DNA of 60,617 nucleotides, from positions 1-60,617 of the forward strand of contig JAGWOI010000014.1 of NCBI GenBank assembly GCA_028870995.1, read 5' to 3'. Within the stretch, counting starts at the first letter, position 1, and each line of letters begins with the position of its first letter. Of the stretch, positions 1-60,617 are shown one piece after another. A model generated the notes under the pieces. That model did no database searches. It was not told where the DNA came from and saw only the letters and a list, made by a program, of their open reading frames with translations. A program made the translations under genes and the position numbers. Source of the DNA: Candidatus Omnitrophota bacterium (GTDB lineage: Bacteria; Omnitrophota; Gorgyraeia; Zapsychrales; Fredricksoniimonadaceae).

Positions 1-524
1 CGTTTTTCTAAAGAAGATTCAACCTTGCTTAGAATACTAACGATTTGCTCTTGAACCGATCTTGGAGGTAAAAAAATTTTAAGATTATCAACATGTTCGT
101 TTCTGAGATTATAAATATTTGCACCAGAAGCAAAACTCGAAATTGTCTGTCTATAATACGGCGTCTTAAAGAAATACGACAAGTATCTTGAGTCAATGTC
201 AGAATTAGGTCTTAGAACTTTACAAAATGCCCCAAAACTACCTTTAAAATCATTTTTAATTTGGGCAGCTTTACCTACAACTGTCATACTTCCACTGGAA
301 GCAGCAATCACGATATCATTTCTTCGTAAAATTTGTGTTTCAGATATATATTTCTCAGGCACATATAATAAGTCTTCATATAATATTTCACCGTCAAGAA
401 TATTATTCGCTCTTAAAATAGGCAAATATTTATCTCTTGACTCCTTTATTGCTTCTTGGCCATTATAGGAAACACCTCTAATCTGCTTTGCAACATCACT
501 TATAGAAACATAAGAAGATTTCAT
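1..524 (-). CDS. hsdS: Type I restriction-modification specificity subunit (5' part; runs off window edge)
   Basis: Not in the ORF track. Manual translation from ATG at 524 (TAATG overlap with hsdM stop): MKSSYVSISDVAKQIRGVSY...LPILRANNI...DIVIAASSGS...VGKAA...ASGANIYNL...LKIFLPPRSVQEQIVSIL, a TRD followed by the conserved LPP..Q..IV helix. Confidence 0.92.
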   Translation of the reverse strand, partial: MKSSYVSISDVAKQIRGVSYNGQEAIKESRDKYLPILRANNILDGEILYEDLLYVPEKYISETQILRRNDIVIAASSGSMTVVGKAAQIKNDFKGSFGAFCKVLRPNSDIDSRYLSYFFKTPYYRQTISSFASGANIYNLRNEHVDNLKIFLPPRSVQEQIVSILSKVESSLEK

Positions 525-2020
525 TATATTATTTCTTCTAATTCTGAAAGACACTGGATTATTTCCTGATTAAGAATCTTTATTCTTTTTAATTGGGCTC
601 TCGGCGAATCGTAGCTTACTTCTTCATACACAACCGGCTTATAGCGGGAAATGGAAAGATCATATTTATTCTCTTTGATCTCCTTGGCATCCACCCAAAA
701 CCACTTCTCCCCTTTTCCGGGCGTCTTTTTCCTATCCCGCGTATTCCATTTTTTGATAATATCAGGAATGTCGTTTTTATCCGGTGTTTTGGTGCGCTTA
801 TCATCCAGGGAATAGCCGTCGGCCTGCATGTCATAGAACCAGACCTTGTCAGTTTTACCGCCCTTAGCAAATATGATAATTGCGGTGGAAACGCCGGCAT
901 AAGGCTTAAAAACACCTGAAGGCATTTTAATAATACCCTGCAATTCGTTGTCTTCCACCAGTCTTTGACGCGCTTCCTTATGCGCGTTGGAAGAACCGAA
1001 TAACACGCCATCCGGCACAATGACCCCGCATTTGCCACCCACCACCATGATTTCTTCAAAAAGATTTAAAAATAAAAGTTCAGTCTTGGTTGTCTTTAGC
1101 TTTAGACGATCGGAAATGTCGCCTTTATCGATATTGCCCTTAAAAGGCGGATTGGCGAGCACGATTTCATACTTTTCTTTCTCTTCATAGCCCTTGGAAA
1201 GCGTATCTTTATATTGGATATCCGGCTTGTCAATGCCGTGCAGGATGGCGTTCATCAAGGCAATACGCACCATGGTTGTATCAAAATCAAAGCCATGCAA
1301 AGCACGTTCCTTCAAGAAAGTCCTTTGCTTTTTATCGGTGATCTTGTCCCCCACCAAGTGGTGAGGAACACCGTCTTCATCATATTCAAGAACATCCGGT
1401 GAAGTGTTTTCTTTAAGAATATGCTGATAGGCATTGATCAAAAAGCCGCCGGTGCCGCAGGCCGGATCGCAGATGCGGTCGCCTAAAACCGGATTGACCA
1501 ATTCCACCATCATGCGGATGATATGCCTTGGCGTGCGGAATTGACCATTTTTCCCTGAAGTTTGCAATTCGCTAAGCAAATATTCGTAAATATCGCCTTG
1601 TGTGTCCTGATTTTGCTGGGTGATGTTTAATTCATCGATAAGACGCACGGATTCCTGCAGCAAGGAAGGCTTAGGGATCATAAACACCGCGTCCTTCATG
1701 GCCTTGCTAAATTCACCATCTTCGCCTTTTAAGATCTTTATAAAGGGAAATACCTTATCCCGCACATGGGTCAACATTTCCTCGGCAGGCATGTTGATCC
1801 AATAAGACCAACGGCAATTCTCTTGGCCTTTATAAATGGAAATATATTTCTCATTGCGCCTTTCCGCAGCTTTTTTATGCACCAGGTCCATGTCTTCCAG
1901 ACGACGCATAAAAATGAGATAGGAAATCTGCTCAATGGCGGTCAGGGGATTGGCAATGCCGCCTTCCCAGAATTTGTTCCAAAGCCGTTTGATTTGATTC
2001 TTTAATTCAGGTGCAAGCAT
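524..2020 (-). CDS. hsdM: Type I R-M N6-adenine methyltransferase subunit
   Basis: GQFRTPRHI, DPACGTGGFL (motif I), NPPF (motif IV). Start set at MLAPEL (2020). Confidence 0.96.
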   Translation of the reverse strand: MLAPELKNQIKRLWNKFWEGGIANPLTAIEQISYLIFMRRLEDMDLVHKKAAERRNEKYISIYKGQENCRWSYWINMPAEEMLTHVRDKVFPFIKILKGEDGEFSKAMKDAVFMIPKPSLLQESVRLIDELNITQQNQDTQGDIYEYLLSELQTSGKNGQFRTPRHIIRMMVELVNPVLGDRICDPACGTGGFLINAYQHILKENTSPDVLEYDEDGVPHHLVGDKITDKKQRTFLKERALHGFDFDTTMVRIALMNAILHGIDKPDIQYKDTLSKGYEEKEKYEIVLANPPFKGNIDKGDISDRLKLKTTKTELLFLNLFEEIMVVGGKCGVIVPDGVLFGSSNAHKEARQRLVEDNELQGIIKMPSGVFKPYAGVSTAIIIFAKGGKTDKVWFYDMQADGYSLDDKRTKTPDKNDIPDIIKKWNTRDRKKTPGKGEKWFWVDAKEIKENKYDLSISRYKPVVYEEVSYDSPRAQLKRIKILNQEIIQCLSELEEII

Positions 2021-2021
2021 G

Positions 2022-3065
2022 TTAACCCTTTCTACGCCATTTGGCCCCGCGCCCCATGCCGGTAGATGAAATCTGGCCGGCATCGCGCAATTCACGCAGG
2101 ACAAGGCGGATCATGTCCCGGCTTATATGAGGACATTCTTTCTCAATTTCAGTAATCGAAAATGGCTTAATGGCTTTATTCACAAATGCTTTGATGAGGT
2201 CGGTCTTCGAGACTTCATCACGGAATATTCCAACCCTTGACTCGAATTCTTTATAGGCGGCAATCAACACCCCGTAAAAATACCGCAGCCATGGCTCGGC
2301 ATTGTGAGCGGCTTGATGCCAGCCTTTTGAAGATGTTTCCAATGTTTCGTAATAGGTCTCTTTGCTGTCCTCAATAACTCTTTCCAAGCTGATATATTTG
2401 CCAACCTTATACCCTGCCTGGTACAAAAGTAACAAGCTTATCAAGCGGGCTGTACGTCCATTTCCGTCTTGAAACGGATGAATACACAAATAATCCAAAA
2501 CAAAAAGCGGTATCAAAATAAGAGAAGAAATCCCCTCCTGTTTATTGACATAAAGATACCGATCAACCAGGGCACTCATGTAATCATAGGTTTGGCTGGC
2601 CGATGGTGGCTGAAAACGCAGGCGGATACTGCCATCCTTCATGCGGTCAACGATTTTATTATCTTCCCGCTTGAATGATCCGCCAGACTGCTGAGTGTAC
2701 TTATATAAAAATTCGTGAAACATCAAGATCGAATTTAGAGAAACCGGCACTGCGCTAAAATTTGTATGGATATAGTCTAAAGCATCCCTGTAGCCTGCCA
2801 CCTCTTCTTCAGGACGGCTGCGCGGCGTTGATTGCTGCTGCACAATATCGATAATGCGCTCATGTTTGACATCAATGCCTTCAATCCGGTTGGAAGACTC
2901 GACACTTTCGACCTTTGCCCGCTCAACGAGCCTCTCCAGAACGTCGGGAGACTGCCTGGTATAAAGAGCTTCCTTGCCCTTATATTCAGACAAGGCATTG
3001 GTCATATTGAGCAATTGCGGTGTTATATGCAGGCCATTTAAATATTCTTGCGAGAAAGATTTCAT
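2022..3065 (-). CDS. Fic-domain protein (class II) with C-terminal winged HTH
   Basis: HPFQDGNGRTAR Fic motif, SSNRIEG inhibitory motif, C-terminal FSITEIEKECPHISRDMIRLVLRELRDAG..GMGRGAKW. Confidence 0.93.
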   Translation of the reverse strand: MKSFSQEYLNGLHITPQLLNMTNALSEYKGKEALYTRQSPDVLERLVERAKVESVESSNRIEGIDVKHERIIDIVQQQSTPRSRPEEEVAGYRDALDYIHTNFSAVPVSLNSILMFHEFLYKYTQQSGGSFKREDNKIVDRMKDGSIRLRFQPPSASQTYDYMSALVDRYLYVNKQEGISSLILIPLFVLDYLCIHPFQDGNGRTARLISLLLLYQAGYKVGKYISLERVIEDSKETYYETLETSSKGWHQAAHNAEPWLRYFYGVLIAAYKEFESRVGIFRDEVSKTDLIKAFVNKAIKPFSITEIEKECPHISRDMIRLVLRELRDAGQISSTGMGRGAKWRRKG

Positions 3066-5851
3066 TTAAGCGGCACCTTTTCATTGAGGAATTCCAATAC
3101 TTCTTTAAGATCATCCTTTGAGAATAAGCGTTCTGCCGCACCCGTACCAAAGGCTTCTACCGGGCCCTCATAGAAATCGTCGATGACCAGCAATTCATGG
3201 CGGCGGACCTTGGCCAGAAAGACGCTCTTAATAACGCGTAAAAACCGCGTTTGGTCAGTGTTATAGTTATGCGCAATAATAAAAGCATCAAAGCTCTCGG
3301 AAATCTGATCTTCCTGGCTTTTGAATTTGTATTTGCCAAAAATCGACTTGATAAATTGCACCAAGGTTCCTTCAGGCTGCTTGTAAACCTCCCTAAGCTT
3401 TTCTTCGGTTATGTATAAATCAGGGCTGTTAAGGGTTTTTTCCAATTCTTCCAAATCCTGGTCATTAACCGGCTGATCGTTACGAAGTTTGGAGACAGCT
3501 TCCTGCTTTTCAGCAAGGTCTTTAATATGCTTCTCAACTTTTTCCTTATAAATATGAACGTATTCTCCCTCGCCATTAGGCCCGAATTCTATCCATTTAC
3601 GTTCGAGGATTTCATCATCCAAATCAAATTCGATGATCTTTTGGCCGTCTTTGCGCTTATATTTCATTATCGGTGAAAGCTTGCTCTTAGCATCCCGGAT
3701 ATTATCTATACTTAAAGACGACCAGAAAGCATCCGATGACATTTTGTATATTGCTTCCTCATGGCGCTTAACGACCTGAAGAGTCATAGGCAGCAGGCGC
3801 AGGTCATCTTTGACAATGTTTTTGAGGTCAAGAATGCGGCGTTCATCCTGATTTAAATGAGCTAATTCCAACTGTTCACACTTTAAAATGAATGAATATT
3901 CATCATAATTGACATCTTCGAGGAAACGCATCAAAGGCGCCACGTGGTCATAAAGAAAATCAGTATCGATATTCTTCCAGAATTCAGGGCTTGATAATCT
4001 TTGCAAAACATCCTTTCGCTCCTTGACACTGATAGAGTCTTTCGGAAGCAGATCAATCATCATCTTTAATTCGTTGATGATATGGCGAACTTCGGTATGA
4101 TCGCCTCTATTGTGATAAAACCGTAACAGATTGATTCTAGCCTTGAATACCCTTGAAGTGATGGCATCTTCGACGGCGGGAGCTTCACCTTCCGGTTTTT
4201 GCCCGAAATATTCAAAATTGTTCCAATGGTCGATAATTAAGAAGTTCTCCTTGTGAGGGCACCAAGGTTTCATATTATTTTTATCCAGAGTCCGTGTGCC
4301 ACGTCCGATCATCTGCCAGAATTTGATTTTGCTGAAAACGGGTTTGGCAAAAACCAAATTGACGACCTCTCTGACATCAACGCCGGTATCGAGCATGTCC
4401 ACCGAAATGGCAATGCGCGGATAGCTGTCATTCTCAAAACGCGTCAAAAAGCCATCGGCCCTGGAATCTTCAGAAACAACAACTTCAGCAAGCCTTCCTT
4501 TATATTGTGGATAAAGCCTATCAAAAGCATCCAAAAGCCGGTACGCATGATTCTTGGTCATGGCAAAGTAAATTGTTTTTCCGGGCAAGGTTCCCGTATC
4601 GTCTTTGGTACATACCTCCATGAACTCCCGAACCATCGCCTCATGGGTGCCGGTATTTGTAAAACGCTTCTCAAACTCCGTGCCTTCAAAGTTCAATTCA
4701 TCGAGCGTCTTGCCCTCTTCCACCAATTTCTTCTTTACTGCCGGCGGAATTTGGTCTTCACGCAGACCTTTAATTTGAAACGATGTTTTGGCATGATAAG
4801 GCACAAAGCCAAGCAGATGTTTTTCTTCAACGGCCTTTTCGTAGGAATAATTAAAGAAATTGTGTTTTATATCCTTCTTCTTTAAGTCCACTTCAAAGAA
4901 CCGGAAGGTATCCCGCTCGATAAATTGTGCAGGAGTGGCGGTAAGGCCGATTTGAATGGCATCGAAATAGGCAAGCACATCCTTCCATTTGTTATAAATG
5001 GAGCGATGGCATTCATCGGCAATCACAAGATCAAAGAATCCGGGAGAAATTTCCTTATAGCATTCCATCATTGTCTGGATGGTGGCTGCATAAAGCCGTT
5101 TCTCGGTATTAAACTTGCCGGAAGTGATTTTGCCGCAGCTTTCCGTAAAAAAACCCTGAAAACCTTTCTTACCATAGGCCTGGTCACGCAGCACCTTGCG
5201 GTCCGTTAAGAATAAAACTGTATTGATACGTTTAGCCCTTAACAGGCAATCAATAGTGGCCATAGCGGTCCGCGTCTTCCCTGTACCCGTTGCCATGACT
5301 AATAAAAACTTACGGCGGCCTTCTTGTATGCCACTTAATACCGTCCGAATGGCCTCCGCCTGATAATCGCGGTCGGCAATTTCAGGGTTTATTTTAATTT
5401 CGTTTAAATTCTTCGCCGCTTCTTGTCTCTGAAAGAATAGCCGCTCTAAATCACGTCTCTCAAAAAAGCCATAAACTAAACGGGGTGGATATCGAAGCCT
5501 GTCCCAAAATAAAATGTCCTCACCATTAGTGAGAAAAATGAACGGTTCGATGCCGAATTTCGCTTTGATATTATCGGCATATCCCTCTGCCTGGCGTTGG
5601 CCTAAGCGCGCACTTTTACTAGTCCTTTTTGCTTCAACAATGGCAAGAGGCAATTCGTTGCGGCCTAACAATAAATAGTCAGCGTATTCATGTTGCGCGC
5701 CATATTCTGCTTGCGGCTCGGAAACCCCCTGTCTTCCCCACACCTTGTCCATCTCATATTCTTCAAGATACTTAACGGGGCCGTTGGGAGACCATAAGGC
5801 CTTTTTTAAGGCCTCATTAATGTAATTTTTTCGAGTTTGCGCTTCGTTCAT
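3062..5851 (-). CDS. hsdR: Type I restriction endonuclease subunit R (EcoEI/EcoAI-like)
   Basis: ADY...VEAK nuclease motif, MATGTGKT, DECHRS, GLTATP, TGVD, QMIGRGTR, EcoEI_R-type C-terminus. Start MNEAQTR. Confidence 0.95.
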   Translation of the reverse strand: MNEAQTRKNYINEALKKALWSPNGPVKYLEEYEMDKVWGRQGVSEPQAEYGAQHEYADYLLLGRNELPLAIVEAKRTSKSARLGQRQAEGYADNIKAKFGIEPFIFLTNGEDILFWDRLRYPPRLVYGFFERRDLERLFFQRQEAAKNLNEIKINPEIADRDYQAEAIRTVLSGIQEGRRKFLLVMATGTGKTRTAMATIDCLLRAKRINTVLFLTDRKVLRDQAYGKKGFQGFFTESCGKITSGKFNTEKRLYAATIQTMMECYKEISPGFFDLVIADECHRSIYNKWKDVLAYFDAIQIGLTATPAQFIERDTFRFFEVDLKKKDIKHNFFNYSYEKAVEEKHLLGFVPYHAKTSFQIKGLREDQIPPAVKKKLVEEGKTLDELNFEGTEFEKRFTNTGTHEAMVREFMEVCTKDDTGTLPGKTIYFAMTKNHAYRLLDAFDRLYPQYKGRLAEVVVSEDSRADGFLTRFENDSYPRIAISVDMLDTGVDVREVVNLVFAKPVFSKIKFWQMIGRGTRTLDKNNMKPWCPHKENFLIIDHWNNFEYFGQKPEGEAPAVEDAITSRVFKARINLLRFYHNRGDHTEVRHIINELKMMIDLLPKDSISVKERKDVLQRLSSPEFWKNIDTDFLYDHVAPLMRFLEDVNYDEYSFILKCEQLELAHLNQDERRILDLKNIVKDDLRLLPMTLQVVKRHEEAIYKMSSDAFWSSLSIDNIRDAKSKLSPIMKYKRKDGQKIIEFDLDDEILERKWIEFGPNGEGEYVHIYKEKVEKHIKDLAEKQEAVSKLRNDQPVNDQDLEELEKTLNSPDLYITEEKLREVYKQPEGTLVQFIKSIFGKYKFKSQEDQISESFDAFIIAHNYNTDQTRFLRVIKSVFLAKVRRHELLVIDDFYEGPVEAFGTGAAERLFSKDDLKEVLEFLNEKVPLK

Positions 5852-5861
5852 ATCTGGGTAA

Positions 5862-5905
5862 AATATAGCACTAAGTAGGTAATATGTCAAATTATTACCT
5901 ACTTA
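5862..5905 (-). promoter_or_regulatory. sigma70 promoter of hsdR operon with 12-bp inverted repeat straddling the -35
   Basis: TTGACA (5885-5890), N17, TGcTATATT (5862-5870). IR TAAGTAGGTAAT (5872-5883) / ATTACCTACTTA (5894-5905). Confidence 0.7.
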
Positions 5906-5910
5906 TAACT

Positions 5911-6591
5911 TCATTTACCTACATTAAAGCTGTAAAAAGAATTATTCCCGATAATGATATGGTCTAAAACTTTTATTTCCATCAAGTCGCCAGCCTCAAA
6001 AAGACGAGATGTGAAAATCTTATCTTCCACACTTGGCGCAGGATCGCCCCCTGGATGGTTATGAACACAAATAAGAGCTGAAGCAAAGTTAGCCAAAGCC
6101 TTTTGAAAGATTTCTCTTATGACAGGATTAGCTTTATTAACAGTTCCTTCAGTTATATCTACTACTGCAATAACTCGATTCTGAGCATTAAGAAGCACTG
6201 CTTTGAAAACCTCAATCTTTAAATCCCTCATGCGGGGCATTAAAAGACCGACAATATCTTTAGCGTTTTTAATGCGTGGTCGAACCTCCTTTAATTCCTC
6301 TTCACGGAAACGTCTTCCTATTTCAATAGCAGCTTTGATTTGAGATAATTTTGCCGGCCCCAAACCTTTAAACTCGCCCCAAACAAGCGAATCAACTTGG
6401 CTTAAGACCCGGAATGACCCAAAACGATCAAGAATATTCCGGGCCAAATCGATCACGCTAATTCCTTTTATACCTGTCCTTAATAAAATTGAGAGAAGTT
6501 CAGAATCGCTTAAAGCCCTTTCGCCCAATTTAAGAAGTTTCTCTCTCGGACGATCATCAACAGGCCAGCGTTTGATTGCAGAATTAGACAT
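5911..6591 (-). CDS. radC: RadC family JAB/MPN protein
   Basis: RPREKL...LSDSELL N-terminus, HhH GLGPAK, HNHPGGDPAPSVED, LDHIIIG. Confidence 0.95.
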   Translation of the reverse strand: MSNSAIKRWPVDDRPREKLLKLGERALSDSELLSILLRTGIKGISVIDLARNILDRFGSFRVLSQVDSLVWGEFKGLGPAKLSQIKAAIEIGRRFREEELKEVRPRIKNAKDIVGLLMPRMRDLKIEVFKAVLLNAQNRVIAVVDITEGTVNKANPVIREIFQKALANFASALICVHNHPGGDPAPSVEDKIFTSRLFEAGDLMEIKVLDHIIIGNNSFYSFNVGK

Positions 6592-6701
6592 AGCACTCCC
6601 TGCCGATTAGTAATTATCTTGTCAGACATGGGGGAATGCTGAGAAATGGATTATATCACATAATGCCGTAATACAAAAAAATCAAATCAACTTAGAAACG
6701 A

Positions 6702-7574
6702 TTAGCGGTAGGGCCGGGACCAGAACTTGAGCTTCCTCTTCCTCACCGGTGTGCCGCGGCGGAAATGCTGGGCCAGCTGGTGGATGAAATACCAAAACTC
6801 CTTCTCGGTCAGGTCGCCTTTCATCCTATTAACCAGCGCTAAGGTGACTACAATCTTTCTGGGATCACGGGGACTCCAATGGTCGAAAACGAGATACCAG
6901 GGGCTTTTGGGGTCATCGGTATCCAAATCCATGCCCGTGTAATAATCGACAAAACCATAATGATGCAAGTATGTCCAAACACCCTCAATGGCCTGGCGAG
7001 TAAAACGCGCCCGTTGCATCCTGTGCAAGAGACCGGAGCATCTGGCACATAACTTTTGCCTTTTTAATTTCGGCGCCCCGCACACTGGACAGACTTCATC
7101 CCCTACCGGCTTAAGTAAGCACCAATGCACCAACGGTCTTTTTTTTACTTTTAGGTGTTTCTGCCTGTAATCATCTAAAGCGAGTACGTAATACTTAAAA
7201 TCTTTCGGTATAAGAGTAAATTTAATATCATTCACCAATGCCGAGGCGGGCACCATCCTGGTTTTATCACCAGGAACCAATTGGCTGAACACCAAATACC
7301 AGGCAGAGGCGTAATCATCTGTCTCCAAGGTCATTCCACTATAATGACATCGACGGCCATGCTTGCGTATCCAGGACCAAAAATATTTCTTACCTTGGGG
7401 TGGAATTCGTTCGTGTATGAGCCGCTGGTCCAAAACGGAACAGGCAGGGCAGTATGTCAACAGATGATGAAAAATCCTGATCTTCTTGCCGCAGCCGCGG
7501 CATTTGACGTATTTGCTGGCCACATATGGATTGCGGCGGCCTTTCATTTTAGAAAAATCATATTCTTTTCTCAT
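6702..7574 (-). CDS. Internally duplicated Zn-ribbon + HNH-like nuclease protein
   Basis: Two units, each CxxC..CxxC followed by Y(S/T)GM.L.TDD..S.WYLVF..; the second has FDH...VNRMK. Start probably MRKEYDFS. Confidence 0.6.
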   Translation of the reverse strand: MRKEYDFSKMKGRRNPYVASKYVKCRGCGKKIRIFHHLLTYCPACSVLDQRLIHERIPPQGKKYFWSWIRKHGRRCHYSGMTLETDDYASAWYLVFSQLVPGDKTRMVPASALVNDIKFTLIPKDFKYYVLALDDYRQKHLKVKKRPLVHWCLLKPVGDEVCPVCGAPKLKRQKLCARCSGLLHRMQRARFTRQAIEGVWTYLHHYGFVDYYTGMDLDTDDPKSPWYLVFDHWSPRDPRKIVVTLALVNRMKGDLTEKEFWYFIHQLAQHFRRGTPVRKRKLKFWSRPYR

Positions 7575-7590
7575 GATCCCCGCTCCCAAT

Positions 7591-7629
7591 TTACACTACA
7601 AGTATCAAAGCTTGGTATTTGTAGTGTAA
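7591..7629. repeat. Inverted repeat TTACACTACAA-N17-TTGTAGTGTAA
   Basis: Perfect 11-bp arms filling most of the gap between the two small island genes. Confidence 0.75.
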
Positions 7630-7950
7630 TTATATTGGCTCTTTTCCACGTAAAGCCCCCCTCAAGAACTTCACCTGTTTTTTAAGCTTAGACAAGGCGT
7701 TTCGGTATTTGGCCCTTAAGCTTTTGGCCTCTTGGTATTGCCTAATTTCTTCCTGAGAAGATTTGCCTTTATAAATATAAACGACTTTAGGGCCTTGCCG
7801 TTTGGCGACATAGTAGTAGTCATGGTTGCGGATCTTCTTTTTGACCAGGCAGCCTTCAGGCAGTTTATTCAAAGCAGATTCGTAGCCCTTCTGCACCCTT
7901 AAAGAGCGCTCCAACTCCTCCGCCAGAACGCCTTTGATCACGCCTCTCAT
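7630..7950 (-). CDS. Small basic protein, DUF6788-like
   Basis: LPEGCLVKKKIRNHDYYYVAKRQGPKVVYIYKGK core between predicted helices. AGGAG RBS upstream. Confidence 0.65.
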   Translation of the reverse strand: MRGVIKGVLAEELERSLRVQKGYESALNKLPEGCLVKKKIRNHDYYYVAKRQGPKVVYIYKGKSSQEEIRQYQEAKSLRAKYRNALSKLKKQVKFLRGALRGKEPI

Positions 7951-7964
7951 ACATCTTCTCCTTT

Positions 7965-8063
7965 TTACCTAACAATATTAACTAAATTATATTATGTTGG
8001 GTAACAATTGTCAACTTTAGTAATTACCTAACAAATATAATTATATCATATTTTGTTAGGTAA
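7965..8063 (-). promoter_or_regulatory. Consensus sigma70 promoter embedded in two tandem 40-bp inverted-repeat units
   Basis: TTGACA (8009-8014), N17, TATAAT (7986-7991). Half-sites TTACCTAACA at 7965 and 8024; TGTTRGGTAA at 7995 and 8054. Confidence 0.8.
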
Positions 8064-15303: not shown

Positions 15304-16473
15304 TTACTCGGACCTCTGATAAGGGTCAAAAAGCCGTTTATGCTCGTCGAGAGCGAAACGGTCCGTCATCGAAGCGATATAATTGCAAATGATGGCATAG
15401 ACCTGTGAGCGCGAAAATTTCTTGTCGCGCGGGAAAACGCCGTACGGCAATTGCTTGGGGTTCTTTAAATACACGTCGAACAAGTCCCGGATGATGCGGC
15501 GGGCCTTGGTGGTCATGCGTTCCACCCGCCAATGATGATAGAGCTTTTCATCGAGCAGCTTCTGCAGCTGCTCGCGCTCCCGGTGCATGGCATCGCTGAA
15601 GGCCACCACATAACCCTTGTGGTCCTTGACCTCCTGGGCAGACTTGAAATCAAGCTTTTTAAGCCGCTCATAAGTGGCCTTCAGCAGGTCCTTGACCTGC
15701 ATGTCGATGAGTTCCTTGACCACCTGGTAGCGGAACATGTCGCGGTCCGGCTGTTCCTGCACGCCGATCTTTTTGACCGCTTTTTGCCACAGCGTGCTTT
15801 CCATGAGGTCATCTTCGACGATGCAGCCCGACGTCAGCCCGTCGTCGACATCATGGTTAAGGTACGCCAGGGAGTCTGCCACATCAACGATCTGGGCCTC
15901 GAGCGTCGGCCCTTCCGTGCGGTACTGCTTGGGGATGTCCGCCCCCGGCATGTCGAACACCGTCTGGTGCTTGAGGATGCCCACCAGCACCTCGCGGGTC
16001 AGGTTAAGGCCGGGAAAACGCGGATATTTCTTTTCCAGTTTGGCGACGATCTCGTAGCTGCGGAAATTGTGGTTGAATTCGATGTCCGCCTCGCGCACGA
16101 TCTCGTTGAGCACCGCCTCCCCCGCATGGCCGAAGGGCGGATGGCCCAGGTCATGCGCCAGGGCGATGGCTTCGATCAGGTCTTCATTAAGGCGCAGGTT
16201 GCGGCCCAGGGTGCGGGCCAGCTGGGCCACTTCGATCGTGTGGGTCAAACGGGTGCGGTAATAATCGCCTTCAAAGATGACGAACACCTGGGTCTTGTAC
16301 TCGAGCTTGCGGAAGGCCTCGGCATGCACGATGCGGTCGCGGTCGCGCTGAAAACTGGTGCGCCACTCGTGCGCCGGCTCGTCATATTGACGGGCCCCCG
16401 CATCACTGGACTTCATGGCATAAGGCGCCAGGGCCTTACTTTCCAACTCTTCGATGTCTTTCCTTGTACGCAT
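15304..16473 (-). CDS. dgt: Deoxyguanosinetriphosphate triphosphohydrolase-like protein
   Basis: FQRDRDRI, KTQVF, RTRLTH, HDLGHPPFGHAGE, MTDRFA. Confidence 0.95.
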   Translation of the reverse strand: MRTRKDIEELESKALAPYAMKSSDAGARQYDEPAHEWRTSFQRDRDRIVHAEAFRKLEYKTQVFVIFEGDYYRTRLTHTIEVAQLARTLGRNLRLNEDLIEAIALAHDLGHPPFGHAGEAVLNEIVREADIEFNHNFRSYEIVAKLEKKYPRFPGLNLTREVLVGILKHQTVFDMPGADIPKQYRTEGPTLEAQIVDVADSLAYLNHDVDDGLTSGCIVEDDLMESTLWQKAVKKIGVQEQPDRDMFRYQVVKELIDMQVKDLLKATYERLKKLDFKSAQEVKDHKGYVVAFSDAMHREREQLQKLLDEKLYHHWRVERMTTKARRIIRDLFDVYLKNPKQLPYGVFPRDKKFSRSQVYAIICNYIASMTDRFALDEHKRLFDPYQRSE

Positions 16474-16948
16474 CGCTTAATTTCTTGTAAATGACGGTCA
16501 ACGATTGGGAGATCACCTTGGTCCCGGCGGTCACCGGCATGAAATTGTGGTCCCCTTTCCATCGCGGCACCAAATGGACATGCACGTGCCTGGGGATGCC
16601 GGCGCCAGCGGTGCGGCCCAGATTGATCCCCACGTTAAACCCGTGGGGTTTGAGCGCGCCTTGCAAAAGGTCCTTGGCCTCACGGAGCAGTTCCATGAGC
16701 TCGGCGTATTCCCCGGCGGGCAATTGATTGATGTCGCCGGCGTGGCGGTTGGCCACGATCAGGCAGTGCCCGTTGCTGTAAGGGTAAAGATTCAATACCG
16801 CATACGCGTGGGGCTTGCGGATGAAAACCAGGCTCTTGGTGTCCGCTTTACCGGCGAGGATACGGCAAAAGACGCAGGCGCCCGGCTTGTCCTTGCCCGC
16901 TAATTTGGTGATGTAGGCTTCACGCCAGGGTGCCCAGAGTCTCTGCAT
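16436..16948 (-). CDS. HIT family hydrolase (Ap4A phosphorylase/FHIT-like)
   Basis: LWAPWR, CVFC, NLYPYSNGH, HVHVHLVPRW. Confidence 0.93.
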   Translation of the reverse strand: MQRLWAPWREAYITKLAGKDKPGACVFCRILAGKADTKSLVFIRKPHAYAVLNLYPYSNGHCLIVANRHAGDINQLPAGEYAELMELLREAKDLLQGALKPHGFNVGINLGRTAGAGIPRHVHVHLVPRWKGDHNFMPVTAGTKVISQSLTVIYKKLSDAYKERHRRVGK

Positions 16949-16949
16949 A

Positions 16950-17429
16950 TCAGATCTTGACAATTTCCGCCTTTATCTTGCCGGCCTCGATGCTGATAAG
17001 GCCGTATGAAAAAAATTTGGCCCTGACCATGTCATTGGGACTGCCGGGATTGAAATACAAGGTCAACCCCACCCGCTGGTTTAACGCCTGGTGGGAATGG
17101 CCGAAGATCACCACATCCATCTTATCATCTTTAAAGCAGGTCATGGCATTTTTTAAGGCGTCCGGCCCCGGCCCCACATGGCCGTGCGTCACGCCGATCT
17201 TAAGGTTGTCGCAATCGATGATCTCCTTGACCGGCAGGACCTTTTTAAGCCCGTTCTCATCCATGTTGCCGGACACGGCCTTGGTGGGCTTGAGTTTTTT
17301 AAGCATCTTCAAGGTGTCCAGGTCACAGATGTCGCCGGCGTGGATGATCAGATCAACAGTTTTAAAACGTTCGATCAGTGCGGCAGGGATATTCAGGGAA
17401 TGGGTGTCAGAAAGTACGCCGATGGTCAT
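16950..17429 (-). CDS. YfcE/MJ0936 family metallophosphoesterase
   Basis: SDTH, HAGD, GNMD, THGH, GHSH, NPGS. Confidence 0.93.
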   Translation of the reverse strand: MTIGVLSDTHSLNIPAALIERFKTVDLIIHAGDICDLDTLKMLKKLKPTKAVSGNMDENGLKKVLPVKEIIDCDNLKIGVTHGHVGPGPDALKNAMTCFKDDKMDVVIFGHSHQALNQRVGLTLYFNPGSPNDMVRAKFFSYGLISIEAGKIKAEIVKI

Positions 17430-54611: not shown

Positions 54612-54678
54612 ATTATAGCCTTCGATACGTCTAATGTAAAGTTATTTTATTGTCAAAGCTCCCAGGGTTAGCTATAAT
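54612..54678. promoter_or_regulatory. Back-to-back divergent sigma70 promoters (hisG and surA-like gene)
   Basis: Minus strand TTTACA (54635-40), N17, TATAAT (54612-17); plus strand TTGTCA (54650-55), N17, TATAAT (54673-78). Confidence 0.7.
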
Positions 54679-54715
54679 GGCACCTTTCAAAACCATTCAT
54701 AGGGGACACGTGTTT

Positions 54716-56137
54716 ATGCTCGAAGTTTTCCGCAAGAAAGGCGTCAACCAAACCATCCTTTGGGTCATCACCGTCATCGTCATTCTCTCTTTCGGCGTTT
54801 TCTGGACCGCCAACCGTTACGACACCGGCGTCAACAGTGTCGGTACGATGTACGGCCACAGCGTCAGCCGCCAGGATTTCGAACAGGCTTATGATGATGC
54901 CCGCGACCAGGACATCAGGACCTACGGTACCGATTTCTTCAAAAACAGCGCCAAATTCGACCTGGAAGCACAGGCCTGGGACCGTTTGATCCTCCTACGG
55001 GAAGCCCGCAAGCGCGGCATCAGGATAAGCGACGCCCAGGTGGTGGACGCGATCGCCAGCATGCCATTTTTCCAGACAGGCGGAAAATTTGACGAGGTAC
55101 GGTATGAAGAAACCGTGCAAAGCCCCGACGGTTTTGACCGGCCCACCCATGATTTCGAGGAAGGCGTCCGCCGGCAACTGATGATCAAGAAATTGGTCGA
55201 CCAGGTCGCCCCTGAAAAAACGTTCACTGATGCCGAATTACGCAACATTTACGATAAACGCAACGAAAAGATCACCCTGCAATATGTCTTGTTCAATGCG
55301 GCTGATTATGCCAAGAATGTTCCCGTTACTGACGAGGGCATCAACAAGTATTACCAACAGCACCATGAAGAGTTTGCCGCTCCCCCTTCCATCGTCCTTA
55401 ATTATGTGCAGACCAAGAATAAAGCCCTGGCCCAGGCTCTTTCCCGTCAGCTGGTGCCGGGAAGCGATTTTGCCGCCACGGCCAAAAAATTAAATTTAGA
55501 AGTTAAGACATCCGCGGCCTTTACTCAGGACCAGCCGATCCTTACCTTCGCTTATAATCCCGACAATATCCAAAAGTTCTTTGCCATGGAACCGGGGGAA
55601 TATTCTCCGGTTCTCGAAGCCCCGGACGGCTGGCAGATCGTGCAGCTCAAGGAAAAGCATCCCTCTTCCATCCCCGCTTTAAAGGATATTAAGGATAAAG
55701 TGAAAGAAGCGCTGCTCTTGGAAAAAGGCTTTAGCCTCGCTAAGCCCCAGGCGGACAAGGCGCTAGCCGCGCTGACCAAGGCATTAAAGACCAAAGATTT
55801 TAAGACAGCAGCGACGGACTTAGGCCTGAAGGTCCAGGAGACCCCCGCTTTCGGACGCAGGGAATTCATCGCCAGCACCGGACTGATAGCGGAATTCCAA
55901 CAGGAAGTCGACGAGCTTAATGCGGACAAAAGATTAAGCGGCGTCATCGCCACGTCACAGGGACCGGCCATCATCTATCTTGAAAAAGAACAAAAGCCTT
56001 CAAAGGCGGAGTTTGATTCGGATAAGGAGAACTTCAGGGAAATGCTGGGTGCCGAAGAGCGCAATCAGCTCCTGGTGGCCTTCATAACCCGGCTTCGTGC
56101 CGAAGCTGATGTGCACAGCCGGATCAAGACCCGGTAA
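54716..56137 (+). CDS. PpiD/SurA N-terminal-domain periplasmic chaperone
   Basis: N-terminal TM, LLREARKRGIRISD, FQTGGKFD..Y, parvulin-like segment (GEYSPV....GWQIV). Confidence 0.85.
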   Translation: MLEVFRKKGVNQTILWVITVIVILSFGVFWTANRYDTGVNSVGTMYGHSVSRQDFEQAYDDARDQDIRTYGTDFFKNSAKFDLEAQAWDRLILLREARKRGIRISDAQVVDAIASMPFFQTGGKFDEVRYEETVQSPDGFDRPTHDFEEGVRRQLMIKKLVDQVAPEKTFTDAELRNIYDKRNEKITLQYVLFNAADYAKNVPVTDEGINKYYQQHHEEFAAPPSIVLNYVQTKNKALAQALSRQLVPGSDFAATAKKLNLEVKTSAAFTQDQPILTFAYNPDNIQKFFAMEPGEYSPVLEAPDGWQIVQLKEKHPSSIPALKDIKDKVKEALLLEKGFSLAKPQADKALAALTKALKTKDFKTAATDLGLKVQETPAFGRREFIASTGLIAEFQQEVDELNADKRLSGVIATSQGPAIIYLEKEQKPSKAEFDSDKENFREMLGAEERNQLLVAFITRLRAEADVHSRIKTR

Positions 56138-59100
56138 CACCAAGAAACTTCCTCAAGTCAACCATAGGCTGGACATGGATAATGACCGGCATGAAACCCG
56201 GGGCATTGCCCAACCGGGCCAGCTGGGCGGGATCAAGATGAAATTTAATCGCCTGGCCGGAGTTATTCATGTGCAGATTCATTTGCCCGGCGGTCAGGTC
56301 GATACCGCCGGTCGTCTGGGCCTTGTCCGCATCCAAGATGCCTTGCAGCATGTTGCCCACCTCTGCCATCGACGCCGGACGCTGTGCCGACGCCCCCACC
56401 ATGCGATTGGTCAGGTCATCGATCTTCATGGAAACGTTCTGCGATACCGGGTTTTCGACATCATGCTGCGAAAGCACATCCTGCAAGGTCCTGCCCAGGC
56501 TGTACATGTCGGAAGAAACGCTGCTTAAATTTTCATACTTGTCCGAATAAGAAGGTGTCATGGCGGGGATCGGTTCACCGAACTTCCTGGCAATGCCAAA
56601 ATCAATCAACATAAATTCGCCCCGGGCATTAACAACGATGTTCGCCGGTTTAATATCATTATGCGCCCACCCCAATTGGTGAACCGCCTGCAGCGTTTGG
56701 ACAAGGCCCTGCACAATACCTATTTTTGCAGCCATAGGCATGGCAAACCAAAACTCCGGCGATTTATTAAGGCTTACCCCTCCCTCGATGCCTTTTAGTT
56801 TCATCCAAAAGGCGTTGTTCTCATCGACCCCTACCTCCAAAAGCTGCGGCACTCCCTGAATTCCCGACTCATTCATATGATAAATCAACCGCGCGGAATC
56901 CTTGGTGGTCTTATTAGAGGGGCCGCGATGCGCGACCTTATAAAAAATGCTTGTGTCGTCCGGGTCCTGGTAGACAGAGGCCGCCCCGCCTTCTCCCAGG
57001 ACTTCCATCCGGGCAAAATCCGGTGCCGATTCGCTGACAAGCCCGTCGAATTCGGGTATCTTATTCAATAAATTTAATGCCTGTTTTCTGGCCCCGGAAA
57101 CCGGTGGCAGTACGGAGACCATGGCACTGTTGGCGCTGTTGGCAATCTCGCTCAACCGCAAGGCGTCAGGATTATTTTGATCTACCAGTTCAGGCAGCGC
57201 AAACTTCAATAACGCCGCGGGGCTGCCCTGCTTTTCCAAGAAAGCCTGCTTTTGCATTATTAAACCGCCGAGATGCCCAACCTCAATGAAGAACGTGTAT
57301 TGGCCGTTAGTCCATCTGGCCTGATCTTGAGCGACGTAGCCGATGACATCCCTTCTATAAATATCCGCCATGGACTTGACGTCATGGGCCAACCGAGCCG
57401 ATTTAAATTGTCCGTCGTCCAAAGGATCCAACGCCGCGAGAACGGCCTTTTTCGCATTTTCCGGCTGGGTCCAATAATTATCTTCTATTTCCAAAGTGCG
57501 CAAAGCTTCCGGATTGGTTTGGTCCACCAGCCGGGGCAAAGCAAACCTTAACAGGGCTGCCGGGCTGCTCTCCTTATCTAAATAAGGTTTTTTGACCACA
57601 GAAGCCATCAGGCCAGAAAGGCCGCCTCTCTCCCTGAAAAATCCTATTTGACCGTCGGTAAACCTTTTGCTATCGGAGGCTTTGTAGGCGATAACATACT
57701 TTCTGTACAACTCGGCCATACGTTTAATATCCCCCGCCTTACGGGCCGCTTCAAATTTCCCCTTGTCTTCAACGCTTTCATCGCCAATACTATCCAGCAC
57801 AGCCAGGATATAATTCTTCGCGGTGATTTCATTGTCCCAAAAACCCCGGGGAAAGGTCACATGGTCTCTTCGCTTGGCCATGTACCACCTCTTAGCGTCC
57901 GCATAAGAAAAACCGTCCTTCACTGCTTTGATTTCAGAAGGGCTGCTGCGCATGGCCGGGTCTTGTGAAACACTGTAATCAATTTCCAGCGTAATGGCCG
58001 TGTTGTTTTCAATGGAAACGCTGGTACCGTTGTTGGTAAACTTCAGCCCTCCCTCAAACCGCGCGGACTTATTGGCATCAACCACCCTGCGTACGGTGCC
58101 TTCCCAGTCCGCCATAAATAACTCCCCGTTAGTGAAGCCAAGGGCCAATTCGCTGCCGCTTACACGGACCAAGGCCTTGCCGCGCCACCCGGCCTCAAAG
58201 GTCATGGTGCTTCCAGGAGCCAAGAATCTTGTTTTGGGCAGGATCCCCTGGTCCTCTCCGGTGGCCTTCTGCAAATCCTCATCGGCATCAGGAGTGGACA
58301 GGCGTTCGAAAAAAGGGTTTCTTGAAGAGAAATACTGTTTATACCTGCCCAGGTCCTGCGCTTTCAAGAACTCTCTGACTTCAGGATAGGTATCAAATTC
58401 GTTTAAGATGCCCACCAAATTCCAATACAACTCCGAGCCGTTGATTTTATCGAGCGGTGATCCGCTGCCTTTCATCAATTGCATTAAGTTAGCTCTATTG
58501 TGGTCTATGACCAGCACCCTCCTTAAAGAATTGAGCATATACCCCTGGTATTCCATACCTCTCCTGTCTTGGAAGGCGTTGAAATACAGGATCAGTTTGT
58601 TCAGATAACTTCGCAAGGCCGGCACGCTCTGATCAAGGACAACTTCATTCTCAGCATCGATCATATCTACGAATAACGGCTTTATGTCCACAGCAGGCGT
58701 CGTTCGTATTTCTTCCCTGAATAATCCGATATGGATATCCCAGGCCTTCCACGGAAAAACCAAGGGTTTGGAAACAAGCAAGCGCAGATCCTGGTCGTCC
58801 GATTTGAGGATGGCCTTAAGAAAGGCATATACTTCATTGGCGTTGGCGTCTTTAACCAGCTGGAGAACATCTTTACTTGTGATGCTGACGGTATTGGTCT
58901 CGCTGACACCTTCAATCGTTTTTAAAATCAATTCATTGAGAATTTTGTATTTAGCATATTGTTCAGGATGGTGTTTTTGAAAAGCCGCGTCATCTACACT
59001 GACCATCGCCTGGTTAACCGGTATCGCCTGCTTGATGCCGGCCAGGGCACTGTTGAGCGCCACCTTGCTTTCATCCGGCAATAAATACCAGACCAGGTCA

Positions 59101-60617
59101 TGCCGTAACATGACCCCAGGGGCAAACATCGATCTTCCCTTAATCTCCTCCTTAAAATAGACTTTATCCCAATTGATCTGTTTAATATCTTTAGCGATGT
59201 CCTCAACCCCCTTGTAATTCTCGGCGAACCTTACAAGCAGCGGTTTTGGGGGAATGGCCCCGTGGTTCTGCGCAAGCCGAAGCGCACGATCGGTGACCTG
59301 GGCATCCCTATCATGAAGGGTCTGTTTCATGTGGTCGGTCACAGCCACCTTGTTGAACCAATCCAGGTCCTGGTTGGAAGGTATATTGACGAGGGGGCCT
59401 GGCAGGGCCGGCTGGCTTATTTGACGCCGCCGTTTGGCCCAGGCCATGAGCAGCAGCCGCATTAAAGAAGTGCGGGTGGATAATTGTTCATACGATTGGC
59501 GGTCCATGGCCACGACTGTTTTCAAAAAATGTTCGGGATCTTTGAAGTCTACCTTATCGTTCTTAAGCGCGCGAAAAAGCTGGCGGGCCGTGGCAGAAAT
59601 ATCATCTCCATTAAGCGCGTAAAGTTGACTAAGAATATATTGCCCTACAAAATGATTAAACCCGTAATGCGCATCTTTTACAGCCTTTAACAAAAGCGTT
59701 CTGATCTGGCCGCTGCCGGTATTCAAATGTTCTTTGATCATCTGGGCGCGGACGTAGTCCATGAATGCGTTTAAAAATTCGGTAAAGTCACTGTCCTTTG
59801 AATACCCCCTGGGTACATTCTCCCAATTCCACTGGGGATTGTCCTTAATGAATCCTATCAGCAGTTTTCCTATCGCAGCACCCTGCTCCAAGCCTGCCGT
59901 ATTAAAGGACTCCTTTGACAAACGGCCCACCAAGGTGCTGACAAGGGTGTCATAGGCTTCAGCAACCCCATTATGAGGCGCTTGCTGGCGCAAGGCAAAA
60001 TGAATGGCATGACCTACCTCGGAACCCAAACCATGAATGCCGTCATCCACCACCCAATCAATCGTGATTTTATCCTTATACATCCCGTTCGTTGTTGAAG
60101 GATAGGTCCCTTTGGATAACCGCAGGTCAATCTTGCGCATGACTTCGTCGGCCAATTGCGGCTGCCCCATCCGGGAAAGGGCCATGGTCACCACCTCGCG
60201 CAGCAAATCCATGGCCCTGGCATGCTGGGGCGTGTCTTTTTGACGCTGATAGGCCTCCTCCTGCCGGTTCATGAAATTTTCGTAAACGGTATTGGCGGCA
60301 GAATTTTCGCCTAGCATGGCGGGGTTGGAGGCGGTTATGTCGACTAAAACGTCATATGAAGGTCCGGCTTCCTGCTGTTGGTAGCTTTTCAACCAGGTTT
60401 TAACGGTCTGTAAAATACCGCCCTGCATGGCCATGTTGGTCTTACCGATCATGGCAAAATTGACCCCCCCTGAAAAATACTTCCTGGGGATCATCTGCTG
60501 GGTCAGCGGGTCCTGTTCTTCTTTGATGTAGTTGTATACCCCCTTCTTGAAGGCCTGTAAGTACCGTTGGTATATCTTCTGCTTTTCCTGAGGGTCCCGG
60601 ATACTGATCCCCGCCAC
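56124..60617 (-). CDS. Giant multidomain protein (5' end outside window) with Ser/Thr kinase domain and GGIDL C-terminal domain
   Basis: 1497-codon open frame reaching the window edge. Kinase motifs LGEGGAASVY, HNDIKPANI, DFG, DMYSLG; internal ~115-aa duplication; recurring [N/D]xAM linkers. Confidence 0.9.
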   Translation of the reverse strand: MAGISIRDPQEKQKIYQRYLQAFKKGVYNYIKEEQDPLTQQMIPRKYFSGGVNFAMIGKTNMAMQGGILQTVKTWLKSYQQQEAGPSYDVLVDITASNPAMLGENSAANTVYENFMNRQEEAYQRQKDTPQHARAMDLLREVVTMALSRMGQPQLADEVMRKIDLRLSKGTYPSTTNGMYKDKITIDWVVDDGIHGLGSEVGHAIHFALRQQAPHNGVAEAYDTLVSTLVGRLSKESFNTAGLEQGAAIGKLLIGFIKDNPQWNWENVPRGYSKDSDFTEFLNAFMDYVRAQMIKEHLNTGSGQIRTLLLKAVKDAHYGFNHFVGQYILSQLYALNGDDISATARQLFRALKNDKVDFKDPEHFLKTVVAMDRQSYEQLSTRTSLMRLLLMAWAKRRRQISQPALPGPLVNIPSNQDLDWFNKVAVTDHMKQTLHDRDAQVTDRALRLAQNHGAIPPKPLLVRFAENYKGVEDIAKDIKQINWDKVYFKEEIKGRSMFAPGVMLRHDLVWYLLPDESKVALNSALAGIKQAIPVNQAMVSVDDAAFQKHHPEQYAKYKILNELILKTIEGVSETNTVSITSKDVLQLVKDANANEVYAFLKAILKSDDQDLRLLVSKPLVFPWKAWDIHIGLFREEIRTTPAVDIKPLFVDMIDAENEVVLDQSVPALRSYLNKLILYFNAFQDRRGMEYQGYMLNSLRRVLVIDHNRANLMQLMKGSGSPLDKINGSELYWNLVGILNEFDTYPEVREFLKAQDLGRYKQYFSSRNPFFERLSTPDADEDLQKATGEDQGILPKTRFLAPGSTMTFEAGWRGKALVRVSGSELALGFTNGELFMADWEGTVRRVVDANKSARFEGGLKFTNNGTSVSIENNTAITLEIDYSVSQDPAMRSSPSEIKAVKDGFSYADAKRWYMAKRRDHVTFPRGFWDNEITAKNYILAVLDSIGDESVEDKGKFEAARKAGDIKRMAELYRKYVIAYKASDSKRFTDGQIGFFRERGGLSGLMASVVKKPYLDKESSPAALLRFALPRLVDQTNPEALRTLEIEDNYWTQPENAKKAVLAALDPLDDGQFKSARLAHDVKSMADIYRRDVIGYVAQDQARWTNGQYTFFIEVGHLGGLIMQKQAFLEKQGSPAALLKFALPELVDQNNPDALRLSEIANSANSAMVSVLPPVSGARKQALNLLNKIPEFDGLVSESAPDFARMEVLGEGGAASVYQDPDDTSIFYKVAHRGPSNKTTKDSARLIYHMNESGIQGVPQLLEVGVDENNAFWMKLKGIEGGVSLNKSPEFWFAMPMAAKIGIVQGLVQTLQAVHQLGWAHNDIKPANIVVNARGEFMLIDFGIARKFGEPIPAMTPSYSDKYENLSSVSSDMYSLGRTLQDVLSQHDVENPVSQNVSMKIDDLTNRMVGASAQRPASMAEVGNMLQGILDADKAQTTGGIDLTAGQMNLHMNNSGQAIKFHLDPAQLARLGNAPGFMPVIIHVQPMVDLRKFLGVTGS

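Follow-up and report, generated by a model that had tools for sequence, protein, structure and literature searches.

A modular protein family with a conserved head, a conserved tail and a D/N-x-A-M motif at module joints in part of the Omnitrophota

The subject of this analysis is a stretch of 60,617 nucleotides (the window) from a Candidatus Omnitrophota bacterium. The window is the whole of contig C54 (JAGWOI010000014.1) in a 2.34-Mb, 59-contig assembly (GCA_028870995.1) with a genome completeness of 94.6%. At its far end an open reading frame (ORF) of 1497 residues plus stop codon occupies positions 56124-60617 of the minus strand; its 5' side is cut by the end of the window, which is also the contig end, inside a conserved N-terminal domain that is termed the head below. 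The remnant of the head is followed by four cargo modules and a conserved C-terminal tail, and the short motif [ND]xAM (aspartate or asparagine, any residue, alanine, methionine) recurs where these parts meet. An initial annotation, made from the letters alone, had described the ORF as a giant protein composed of unrelated domains and had proposed that the motif is either a protease recognition site or a cassette junction. The analysis places the protein in a family in which the motif marks the joints between exchangeable modules. The parts of the ORF are as follows.

60465..60617, minus strand: remnant of the N-terminal domain (head), its last 51 residues, up to PRKYFSGG; DNA about 99% identical to the start of contig C17 and the end of contig C27
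60318..60464, minus strand: head-to-cargo linker, residues 52-100, with NFAM and NMAM; NPAM overlaps the next part
59007..60317, minus strand: cargo module 1, residues 101-537, first residue the Met of NPAM
57954..59006, minus strand: cargo module 2, residues 538-888, first residue the Met of NQAM
57123..57953, minus strand: cargo module 3, residues 889-1165, first residue the Met of DPAM; a repeat of about 110 amino acids (aa) occurs twice
56319..57122, minus strand: cargo module 4, residues 1166-1433, first residue the Met of NSAM; Ser/Thr protein kinase
56127..56318, minus strand: GGIDL C-terminal tail, residues 1434-1497; preceded by the relaxed motif DKAQ, with an internal DPAQ
60450-60461, minus strand: motif NFAM, residues 53-56
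60426-60437, minus strand: motif NMAM, residues 61-64
60315-60326, minus strand: motif NPAM, residues 98-101
59004-59015, minus strand: motif NQAM, residues 535-538
57951-57962, minus strand: motif DPAM, residues 886-889
57120-57131, minus strand: motif NSAM, residues 1163-1166
56316-56327, minus strand: relaxed variant DKAQ, residues 1431-1434

Arithmetic on the residue positions returned the coordinates that the initial annotation had given for all seven motifs, and its segment lengths of 437, 351, 277, 268 and 64 aa were reproduced. Three AM dipeptides without a preceding N or D (ARAM, WFAM and IPAM) had been named correctly and a fourth, VVAM, had been overlooked; N or D is found at position -3 in 6 of the 10 AM dipeptides of the window protein. 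The kinase that had been assigned to the segment between NSAM and DKAQ was recovered as a match to the Pfam family Pkinase (PF00069; envelope at residues 1202-1401, positions 56415-57014, E 2.3e-14, 53.8 bits against a cut-off of 31.7). PDB kinases align to residues 1197-1470, and an HND..K..N catalytic loop and a DFG motif can be read in the translation of module 4, which place it in the Protein kinase superfamily. The tandem repeat in residues 889-1166 was likewise confirmed by local self-alignment (score 222, about 105 aa). Module 1 gave no sequence match in Pfam or PDB and only weak, unnamed clusters in the ESM Atlas; it shares 57% identity with the first cargo module of a family gene at another locus (L061).

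The genome carries 17 paralogs of 669-5041 aa, taken as the ORFs that enclose tblastn matches to the first 60 residues (16 genome places) or the last 72 residues (11 places). In 12 of them the N terminus is complete and consists of a hydrophobic, signal-like segment and a head of about 320 aa that ends with PRKYFSGG; mean column identity of the head among these own paralogs is 63%. All 17 finish with a tail of about 65 aa that starts GGI[DK][LF], and the cargo between head and tail is not similar in any pair of paralogs at E < 1e-5. Five paralogs are cut inside the head at contig ends, and five matching N-terminal fragments are located at the ends of other contigs, one of which carries the missing 5' part of the window gene. 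The DNA of contigs C54, C17 and C27 is about 99% identical through the codons for YFSGG(VNF) and diverges sharply at the first motif. In sequencing run X1, which may be the source of the assembly, read depth goes from 11 to 57 across 60474-60617 and loose ends lie at 60457-60472. The assembly is broken at 60465..60617 because the near-identical paralog copies of the head form a repeat.

Full-length paralogs have 288-387 aa ahead of the block at which the window ORF begins; with a missing 5' part of this size the complete window protein is about 1,800 aa long. The description as a giant protein was therefore dropped, as the same genome contains ORFs of 23,142 and 11,695 aa. The longer one (G000:C42:84266-153691, plus strand) contains 0.18% cysteine and has N or D in the motif position at 13 of its 70 AM dipeptides, mildly above the 9.2% background; the shorter one (G000:C14:1-35085, plus strand) is open at the contig start and contains 0.017% cysteine. 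Several paralogs, for example those on contigs C23, C32, C15, C53 and C14 of this genome, have a common AT-rich upstream word, (A/G)CATACTTTA, which is located 8-12 nt ahead of the start codon in some paralogs and 50-60 nt ahead in others. A Shine-Dalgarno word is missing at most family gene starts. A common promoter is one possible reading of the upstream word, leaderless mRNAs another.

The frequency of the motif was compared with several backgrounds. Among the 17 own paralogs 61 of 104 AM dipeptides belong to [ND]xAM, against 119 of 1522 in all other ORFs of the genome (Fisher p = 1.7e-35; N plus D background 9.2%; 1,937 ORFs in all, obtained by crude greedy calling). The share is 155 of 267 in 71 ORFs from other Omnitrophota genomes, a set that started from 80 loci and lost nine at which the marker patterns found no ORF, and 623 of 960 in 233 family proteins (215,838 aa). 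In the cargo of 150 profile-search representatives (123,934 aa), DxAM was observed 346 times when 14.0 occurrences were expected, a 25-fold excess, and it is the most enriched gapped 4-mer among those with a meaningful count. The motif thus recurs far above background frequency, as the initial annotation had anticipated. A reading of its recurrence as chance or composition, suggested by the fact that only three residues are fixed, is refuted by these enrichment counts, by the residue preferences and by the fixed place of the motif after the head and before the tail, and practically no weight is given to it.

Residue preferences were calculated for the 233 proteins. At position 1, D is enriched 8.2-fold and N 2.3-fold, with S at 0.8-fold and E at 0.3-fold; at position 3, A is enriched 7.8-fold, and at position 4, M is enriched 12.7-fold and Q 1.6-fold. 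The second position is broad (A, R, Q, K, P), and the residue two places past the motif Met is mostly small. In the own paralogs the motif is written with varying synonymous codons (GAT 39, GAC 22; GCC 38, GCG 13, GCA 7, GCT 3), and D and N are seen to replace one another at orthologous joints. Synonymous codon variation and the interchange of D and N indicate that selection acts on the protein and not on a DNA site.

The motif is placed regularly along the chain. A strict motif is found within 80 aa past PRKYFSGG in 136 of 159 proteins (median distance 8 aa) and within 30 aa ahead of the tail in 75 of 144 tails (median distance from Met to GGIDL 7 aa); a further 29 of the 144 tails are preceded by a relaxed [NDS]xA[MQ], like the DKAQ of the window protein. 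Modules that reach from motif to motif have a median length of 318 aa (n = 293). Motifs avoid Pfam envelopes and mark the joints between modules, in agreement with the domain boundaries predicted for them: only two were seen inside envelopes when 15.3 were expected (p = 1.1e-5; 37 envelopes in 27 proteins), and each of these lies about 11 residues or less from an envelope edge. The flanks of the motif are modestly enriched in disorder-promoting residues (0.66-0.74 vs 0.58).

The modules between the motifs behave as units of exchange. Module 3 of the window protein recurs with 60% identity as the last module of another member (P0152, 2208 aa), directly ahead of the tail, and its homologs are also found free-standing in five proteins of 206-580 aa (P0168-P0172) that have neither head, tail nor motif. 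The C-terminal part of module 2 (residues 652-885) is 48% identical to residues 964-1205 of P0154, and the match stops one residue before DPAM. Modules of the window protein therefore occur in other members and at other positions, as the cargo shuffling proposed earlier had implied. In the family as a whole, 134 homologous module pairs were obtained from 469 modules of 241 proteins; 92 of these were used after removal of pairs with at least 95% identity and of rows in which the head-end pattern had failed, and the module index differs in 69 of the 92. In 54 of the 92 pairs the high-scoring segment pair (HSP) ends no more than 10 aa from the end of a module in one or both proteins; 2000 trials of the null model gave 33.6 such pairs on average and 46 at most. 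The most striking single case is a module that is 99% identical over its whole length between P0002 (874-1188) and P0006 (391-705), with unrelated flanks up to DxA|M, in proteins with heads that are 91% identical. P0068 and P0097 have a two-module block in common at different positions, and the paralog on contig C15 has two modules in common with a protein at locus L055, between which an additional module is inserted in the former. Paralogs are thus not collinear orthologs, and of the two roles initially offered for the motif, that of a cassette junction is borne out by breakpoints at the motif, by shared heads and tails around unlike cargo and by the recurrence of modules at other positions. 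The existence of the family, its architecture, the enrichment of the motif, its location between domains, the protein-level selection on it and its match to exchange boundaries are regarded as firmly established.

Family loci were sought in other genomes. At least 569 are present in genome contigs, nearly all in records titled Omnitrophota or Omnitrophica or given the label "uncultured Planctomycetales" by those who submitted them, and a profile search returned 8,281 representative clusters at E <= 0.001. Within the phylum, the family was found in 26 of 201 sampled genomes, with 26 of 26 in the class of the source genome, and it was not found in the other sampled genomes. The literature search, which covered publications outside their supplements, yielded no description of the family, head, tail or motif; the available parts of PMC12419801 and PMC11285876 deal with giant Omnitrophota proteins or unrelated systems, not with this family. 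As judged from the sequence searches, the family is large, unnamed and confined to part of the Omnitrophota, and its head, tail and junction motif are new.

Members have a common layout: a signal-like N terminus, a head of about 320 aa to PRKYFSGG, a variable cargo of one to about ten modules and a GGIDL tail of about 65 aa. The head is N-terminal in every one of the 8,281 clusters. At the 80 outside loci it is present in 40 of 45 tail-bearing ORFs; of the remaining five, four appear to be split family genes and the fifth has an open 5' end. At four loci (L043, L048, L077 and L103) a headless tail ORF is located just downstream of a tailless head ORF on the same strand, and a stop codon or frameshift has probably split a family gene in each case. 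Neither head nor tail matched Pfam, which was searched with the own paralogs and 75 outside representatives, or NCBIfam. The head was modelled with a predicted local distance difference test score (pLDDT) of 80 and a predicted template modelling score (pTM) of 0.81 as long helices with two beta hairpins; a loop with the sequence WVNLSPYE, invariant in the head, is modelled at low confidence. LKQ and FNKVW are further invariant residues of the head. No clear match to this fold was obtained in PDB (Foldseek best E 0.053; VIA best Z 4.5 over 58 residues; second PDB structure search best Z 3.4), and the leads are weak: BPI/PLUNC-like proteins (Z 2.6-3.1, 110-142 aligned) and ClyA-family toxins (Foldseek probability about 0.1). 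Matches to the head in the ESM Atlas are hypothetical Omnitrophota clusters only. No fold is predicted for the tail on its own (pLDDT 67, pTM 0.30), and its internal DPA[MQ] is modelled by AlphaFold as the start of a helix. An insensitive search with a 73-aa tail as query matched two proteins. A second tail subtype (L092, L096, L099 and L103:4313-4567) has a core of the form ...IKRDGKGVPLP... in place of IKFHLDPAML...NAPGF and retains GGIDL and GF.PVI.

Recognisable cargo is diverse. Pfam matches include Pkinase, ABC1, Fic, PLD, several methyltransferases, GT1/GT2/GT5, UDPGP and PRTase as well as HAD, metallophosphatase, receiver, HATPase_c, HTH, DnaJ, HPr, M48, HEAT and pentapeptide domains, while 51 of the 75 outside representatives scanned gave no Pfam match at 1e-5. 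The cargo domains named by Pfam require cytoplasmic cofactors. A Kyte-Doolittle scan of 159 proteins found an N-terminal hydrophobic segment in 107 and no transmembrane (TM)-like segment past the head in 112. In some paralogs (G000:C32, C58, C15, C14 and C17:20495-29239) the first module starts, just after the first motif, with a hydrophobic stretch that resembles a signal peptide or a TM segment. Cysteine is nearly absent: it makes up 0.05% of the own cargo and 0.11% of the cargo of the 150 representatives, compared with 1.25% of the remaining proteome, and the window protein contains none in 1497 aa. The free-standing homologs of module 3 have 12 cysteines in 2,066 aa. The near-absence of cysteine from enzymes of cytoplasmic type argues for export, and it is considered probable that the family proteins are exported. 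We infer that the cargo would cross an oxidising compartment unfolded and then work in the cytoplasm of another cell. Omnitrophota are widespread, uncultured and very small and are thought to live on other cells. A link between the family and a host-dependent lifestyle, drawn from its occurrence in Omnitrophota and from the cysteine-free enzymes of cytoplasmic type, is plausible.

In the proposed mechanism, the family proteins would cross the inner membrane by the Sec route and remain unfolded or disulfide-free, and the near-total lack of cysteine would be a consequence of this state in transit. The cargo would act in another cell, and the motif would be the site of a protease directed to Asp or Asn that releases the head, the single modules and the tail. 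Cleavage could occur at A|M, which would leave an N-terminal Met, or equally at the bond between D/N and x. Four properties of the motif suggest cleavage: it is both short and strict, selection on it acts on the protein, its position is in linkers, and it occurs at all kinds of joint, including the one ahead of the tail. D and N are equivalent and E is excluded, which suggests that the Asp/Asn side chain is recognised, and Ala before the putative A|M bond would suit proteases that take small P1 residues. Cleavage of the motif by a protease is given a chance that approaches even without exceeding it. The combined explanation, a modular exported multi-effector family in which the motif is a protease site, is judged the best overall and about as likely to be right as wrong. 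A more far-reaching version is put forward tentatively: a new effector-delivery platform of one Omnitrophota class, with a head that anchors or translocates, a tail that serves as a secretion or targeting signal and folds only on its partner, a motif that is both the site of a dedicated Asp/Asn-directed protease and the register for swaps, and cysteine-free enzyme modules that are released in or on prey or host.

A number of observations weigh against the exported, protease-processed reading. No protease family was recognised in head or tail by the Pfam and NCBIfam searches, nor a protease fold in the head by the PDB fold and Atlas searches. The initial annotation had suggested looking for a co-occurring protease; no neighbour gene, protease or other, is conserved across 97 loci, where nothing beyond generic families recurs and the best real neighbour clusters cover 9-10 of the 97. 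Searches of the own genome gave no match to the Pfam C13 and C14 peptidase families and recovered only two ordinary S41 peptidases, and a search for Peptidase_C80 gave no match there, a search that matched no control genome either. The motif does not account for every boundary: 40 of 144 tails have no motif in the 30 aa upstream, 6 of 143 representatives have cargo without any motif, and the homology units in module 2 of the window protein, at least two in number, are not separated by a motif, so that not all domain boundaries bear one. HSP starts show no excess at module starts (39 of 92 pairs vs 33.6 on average and 44 at most under the null model), and outside the pair P0002/P0006 no module identity is higher than the head identity (0 of 78 pairs below 95%), from which it follows that most exchanges are old. 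The call of a signal peptide is based on a crude hydropathy scan and inspection by eye. One apparent neighbour was set aside: the largest neighbour cluster (28 members at 23 of the 97 loci) consists of a shadow ORF antisense to the head that is no gene but an artefact of conservation in the coding strand, exemplified by G000:C53 at about 16343-17348 on the plus strand.

The junction evidence fits equally well with a motif that is never cut and is instead the signature of a linker in one long exported or surface protein, a short docking or capping element that travels with each cassette and to which a chaperone, a secretion component or the head domain might bind. The DPA[MQ] inside the tail, modelled as a helix start, indicates that the motif can be structural, and the searches of conserved parts, neighbouring genes and peptidase families identified no protease. 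A helix cap, however, would usually accept S or T, and the lack of enrichment of S (0.8-fold), the depletion of E (0.3-fold) and the strict A-M fit this role poorly; the motif stretches are slightly disorder-promoting, and the presence of unrelated enzymes of no shared pathway on one chain suggests separate release. This alternative is rather doubtful, though far from negligible. Export itself could be questioned if the proteins were membrane-anchored signalling or metabolic proteins with cytoplasmic cargo and a head acting as a periplasmic sensor. Receiver, HATPase_c, HTH and kinase domains are typical cytoplasmic cargo, and the available part of a preprint on giant Omnitrophota proteins reads similar domain content as membrane-anchored and cytoplasmic (bioRxiv 10.64898/2026.06.07.730766). 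A hydrophobic segment within 75 aa past the head, which could return the cargo inside, is present in 17 of the 159 proteins, but 112 have no TM-like segment anywhere past the head; a 25-fold depletion of cysteine over unrelated folds would be unexpected in the cytoplasm, and tail and motif would be left without a role. A retained cytoplasmic location is accordingly thought improbable.

It was also considered that the motif Met might be a functional or fossil start codon and the modules captured ORFs or separately translated units. The Met is nearly obligatory, the residues that follow resemble native N termini with a small residue at +2, the first module of some paralogs begins like a signal peptide, and module 3 is known from free-standing genes. 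Against this, the D/N and A upstream of the Met are under selection at the protein level, the motif also precedes the tail, where there is no captured ORF, and the free-standing homologs do not start at the position aligned with the motif Met. Internal translation starts of the Shine-Dalgarno type were rejected, because words of this kind occur at 5 of 61 motif ATGs, which equals the rate at control internal Met codons (7.9%). Very little credence is given to this explanation.

Two features of the window lie outside the family gene. A convergent ORF of 495 aa at 54650-56137 on the plus strand overlaps the 3' end of the gene by 14 nt. Positions 1-8000 have a GC content of 0.41-0.44, compared with 0.50-0.56 over most of the remaining window, and may be a foreign or differently constrained segment.

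For the question of how Omnitrophota act on their hosts, the family provides a concrete and very large repertoire of candidate effectors. Head, DxAM joints and tail form a simple, searchable grammar that lists the cargo modules, most of them without a known family, predicts module boundaries from sequence and provides a basis on which direct tests of processing and secretion can be designed. Should the motif prove to be a cleavage site, it would represent a new protease specificity and a naturally modular scaffold, and if the reading as a delivery platform is true, a cell would possess a dozen or more multi-effector proteins.

Among known systems, the initial annotation had pointed to MARTX toxins and viral polyproteins. 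MARTX effectors are freed by cuts between domains, according to excerpts of three publications (PMC6315884, PMC11296635, PMC2900308). Like the family described here, these toxins have one long chain with unrelated, exchangeable effector domains between conserved flanks, and the arrays vary among relatives. MARTX toxins are cut after Leu, whereas the junction of the family is D/N-x-A-M. The family also differs by the lack of RTX repeats and of a C80 domain in 17 own and 75 outside proteins: RTX/HemolysinCabind gave no match in the window protein (E <= 1), 16 paralogs (E <= 0.01) or 75 representatives (E <= 1e-5), and Peptidase_C80 gave none in Pfam scans of the same three groups. Moreover, a signal-like segment at the N terminus, an unrelated head and a tail of 65 aa characterise its members, and many paralogs are found per genome (17 here). 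Viral polyproteins similarly unite unrelated units on one chain with a short degenerate motif in the linkers; the family differs in being cellular, multi-copy and without a protease module in the chain.

Secretion systems that use a C-terminal domain offer a partial likeness. The type IX secretion system (T9SS) is a system of the Bacteroidota. Its cargo combines an N-terminal Sec signal with a conserved C-terminal domain of less than 100 aa, much as a signal-like segment and a tail are combined in the family, and in T9SS this domain directs passage through the outer membrane and is then cut off, as described in an excerpt of PMC11285876. The window protein gave no match to T9SS C-terminal domains in Pfam (E <= 1) or NCBIfam (E <= 0.1), and the family tail differs in that, when modelled alone, it is not predicted to be a compact sandwich. 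Classical autotransporters have a C-terminal beta-barrel of about 250-300 aa, compared with about 65 aa in the family, and the Autotransporter domain had no Pfam match in the window protein or own paralogs.

The oomycete Crinkler (CRN) effectors have a junction with the sequence HVLVxxP. In these proteins, as in the family, a conserved trafficking part at the N terminus finishes with a short motif and diverse effector domains come next, and the C-terminal domains of Crinklers are modular and recombined (PMC3607596, in excerpt). They differ from the family in that they are eukaryotic and have a single C-terminal cargo, no conserved tail and no sequence relation.

The polymorphic toxins CdiA and Rhs have swap-point motifs of their own, VENN in CdiA and DPxGL in Rhs. 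They resemble the family in having a conserved N-terminal part, hypervariable cargo that also occurs in other contexts and a short motif at the exact swap point; the modular division of CdiA into a trafficking part and variable cargo is described in the accessible part of PMC5371414. Pre-toxin domains (haemagglutinin repeats, Rhs core, PT-VENN, PT-HINT) were absent from Pfam scans of the family proteins, and the 97 loci yielded no conserved gene downstream that resembles an immunity gene, a comparison from which unrelated small immunity genes would escape. The family is further set apart by several motif-bounded modules per protein, by a conserved tail after the cargo and by cargo that resembles regulatory and metabolic enzymes and not nucleases or pore formers. 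The system is a variation on the polymorphic multi-effector theme in which head, tail and junction motif are all new, and its layout looks like that of a new multi-effector delivery platform.

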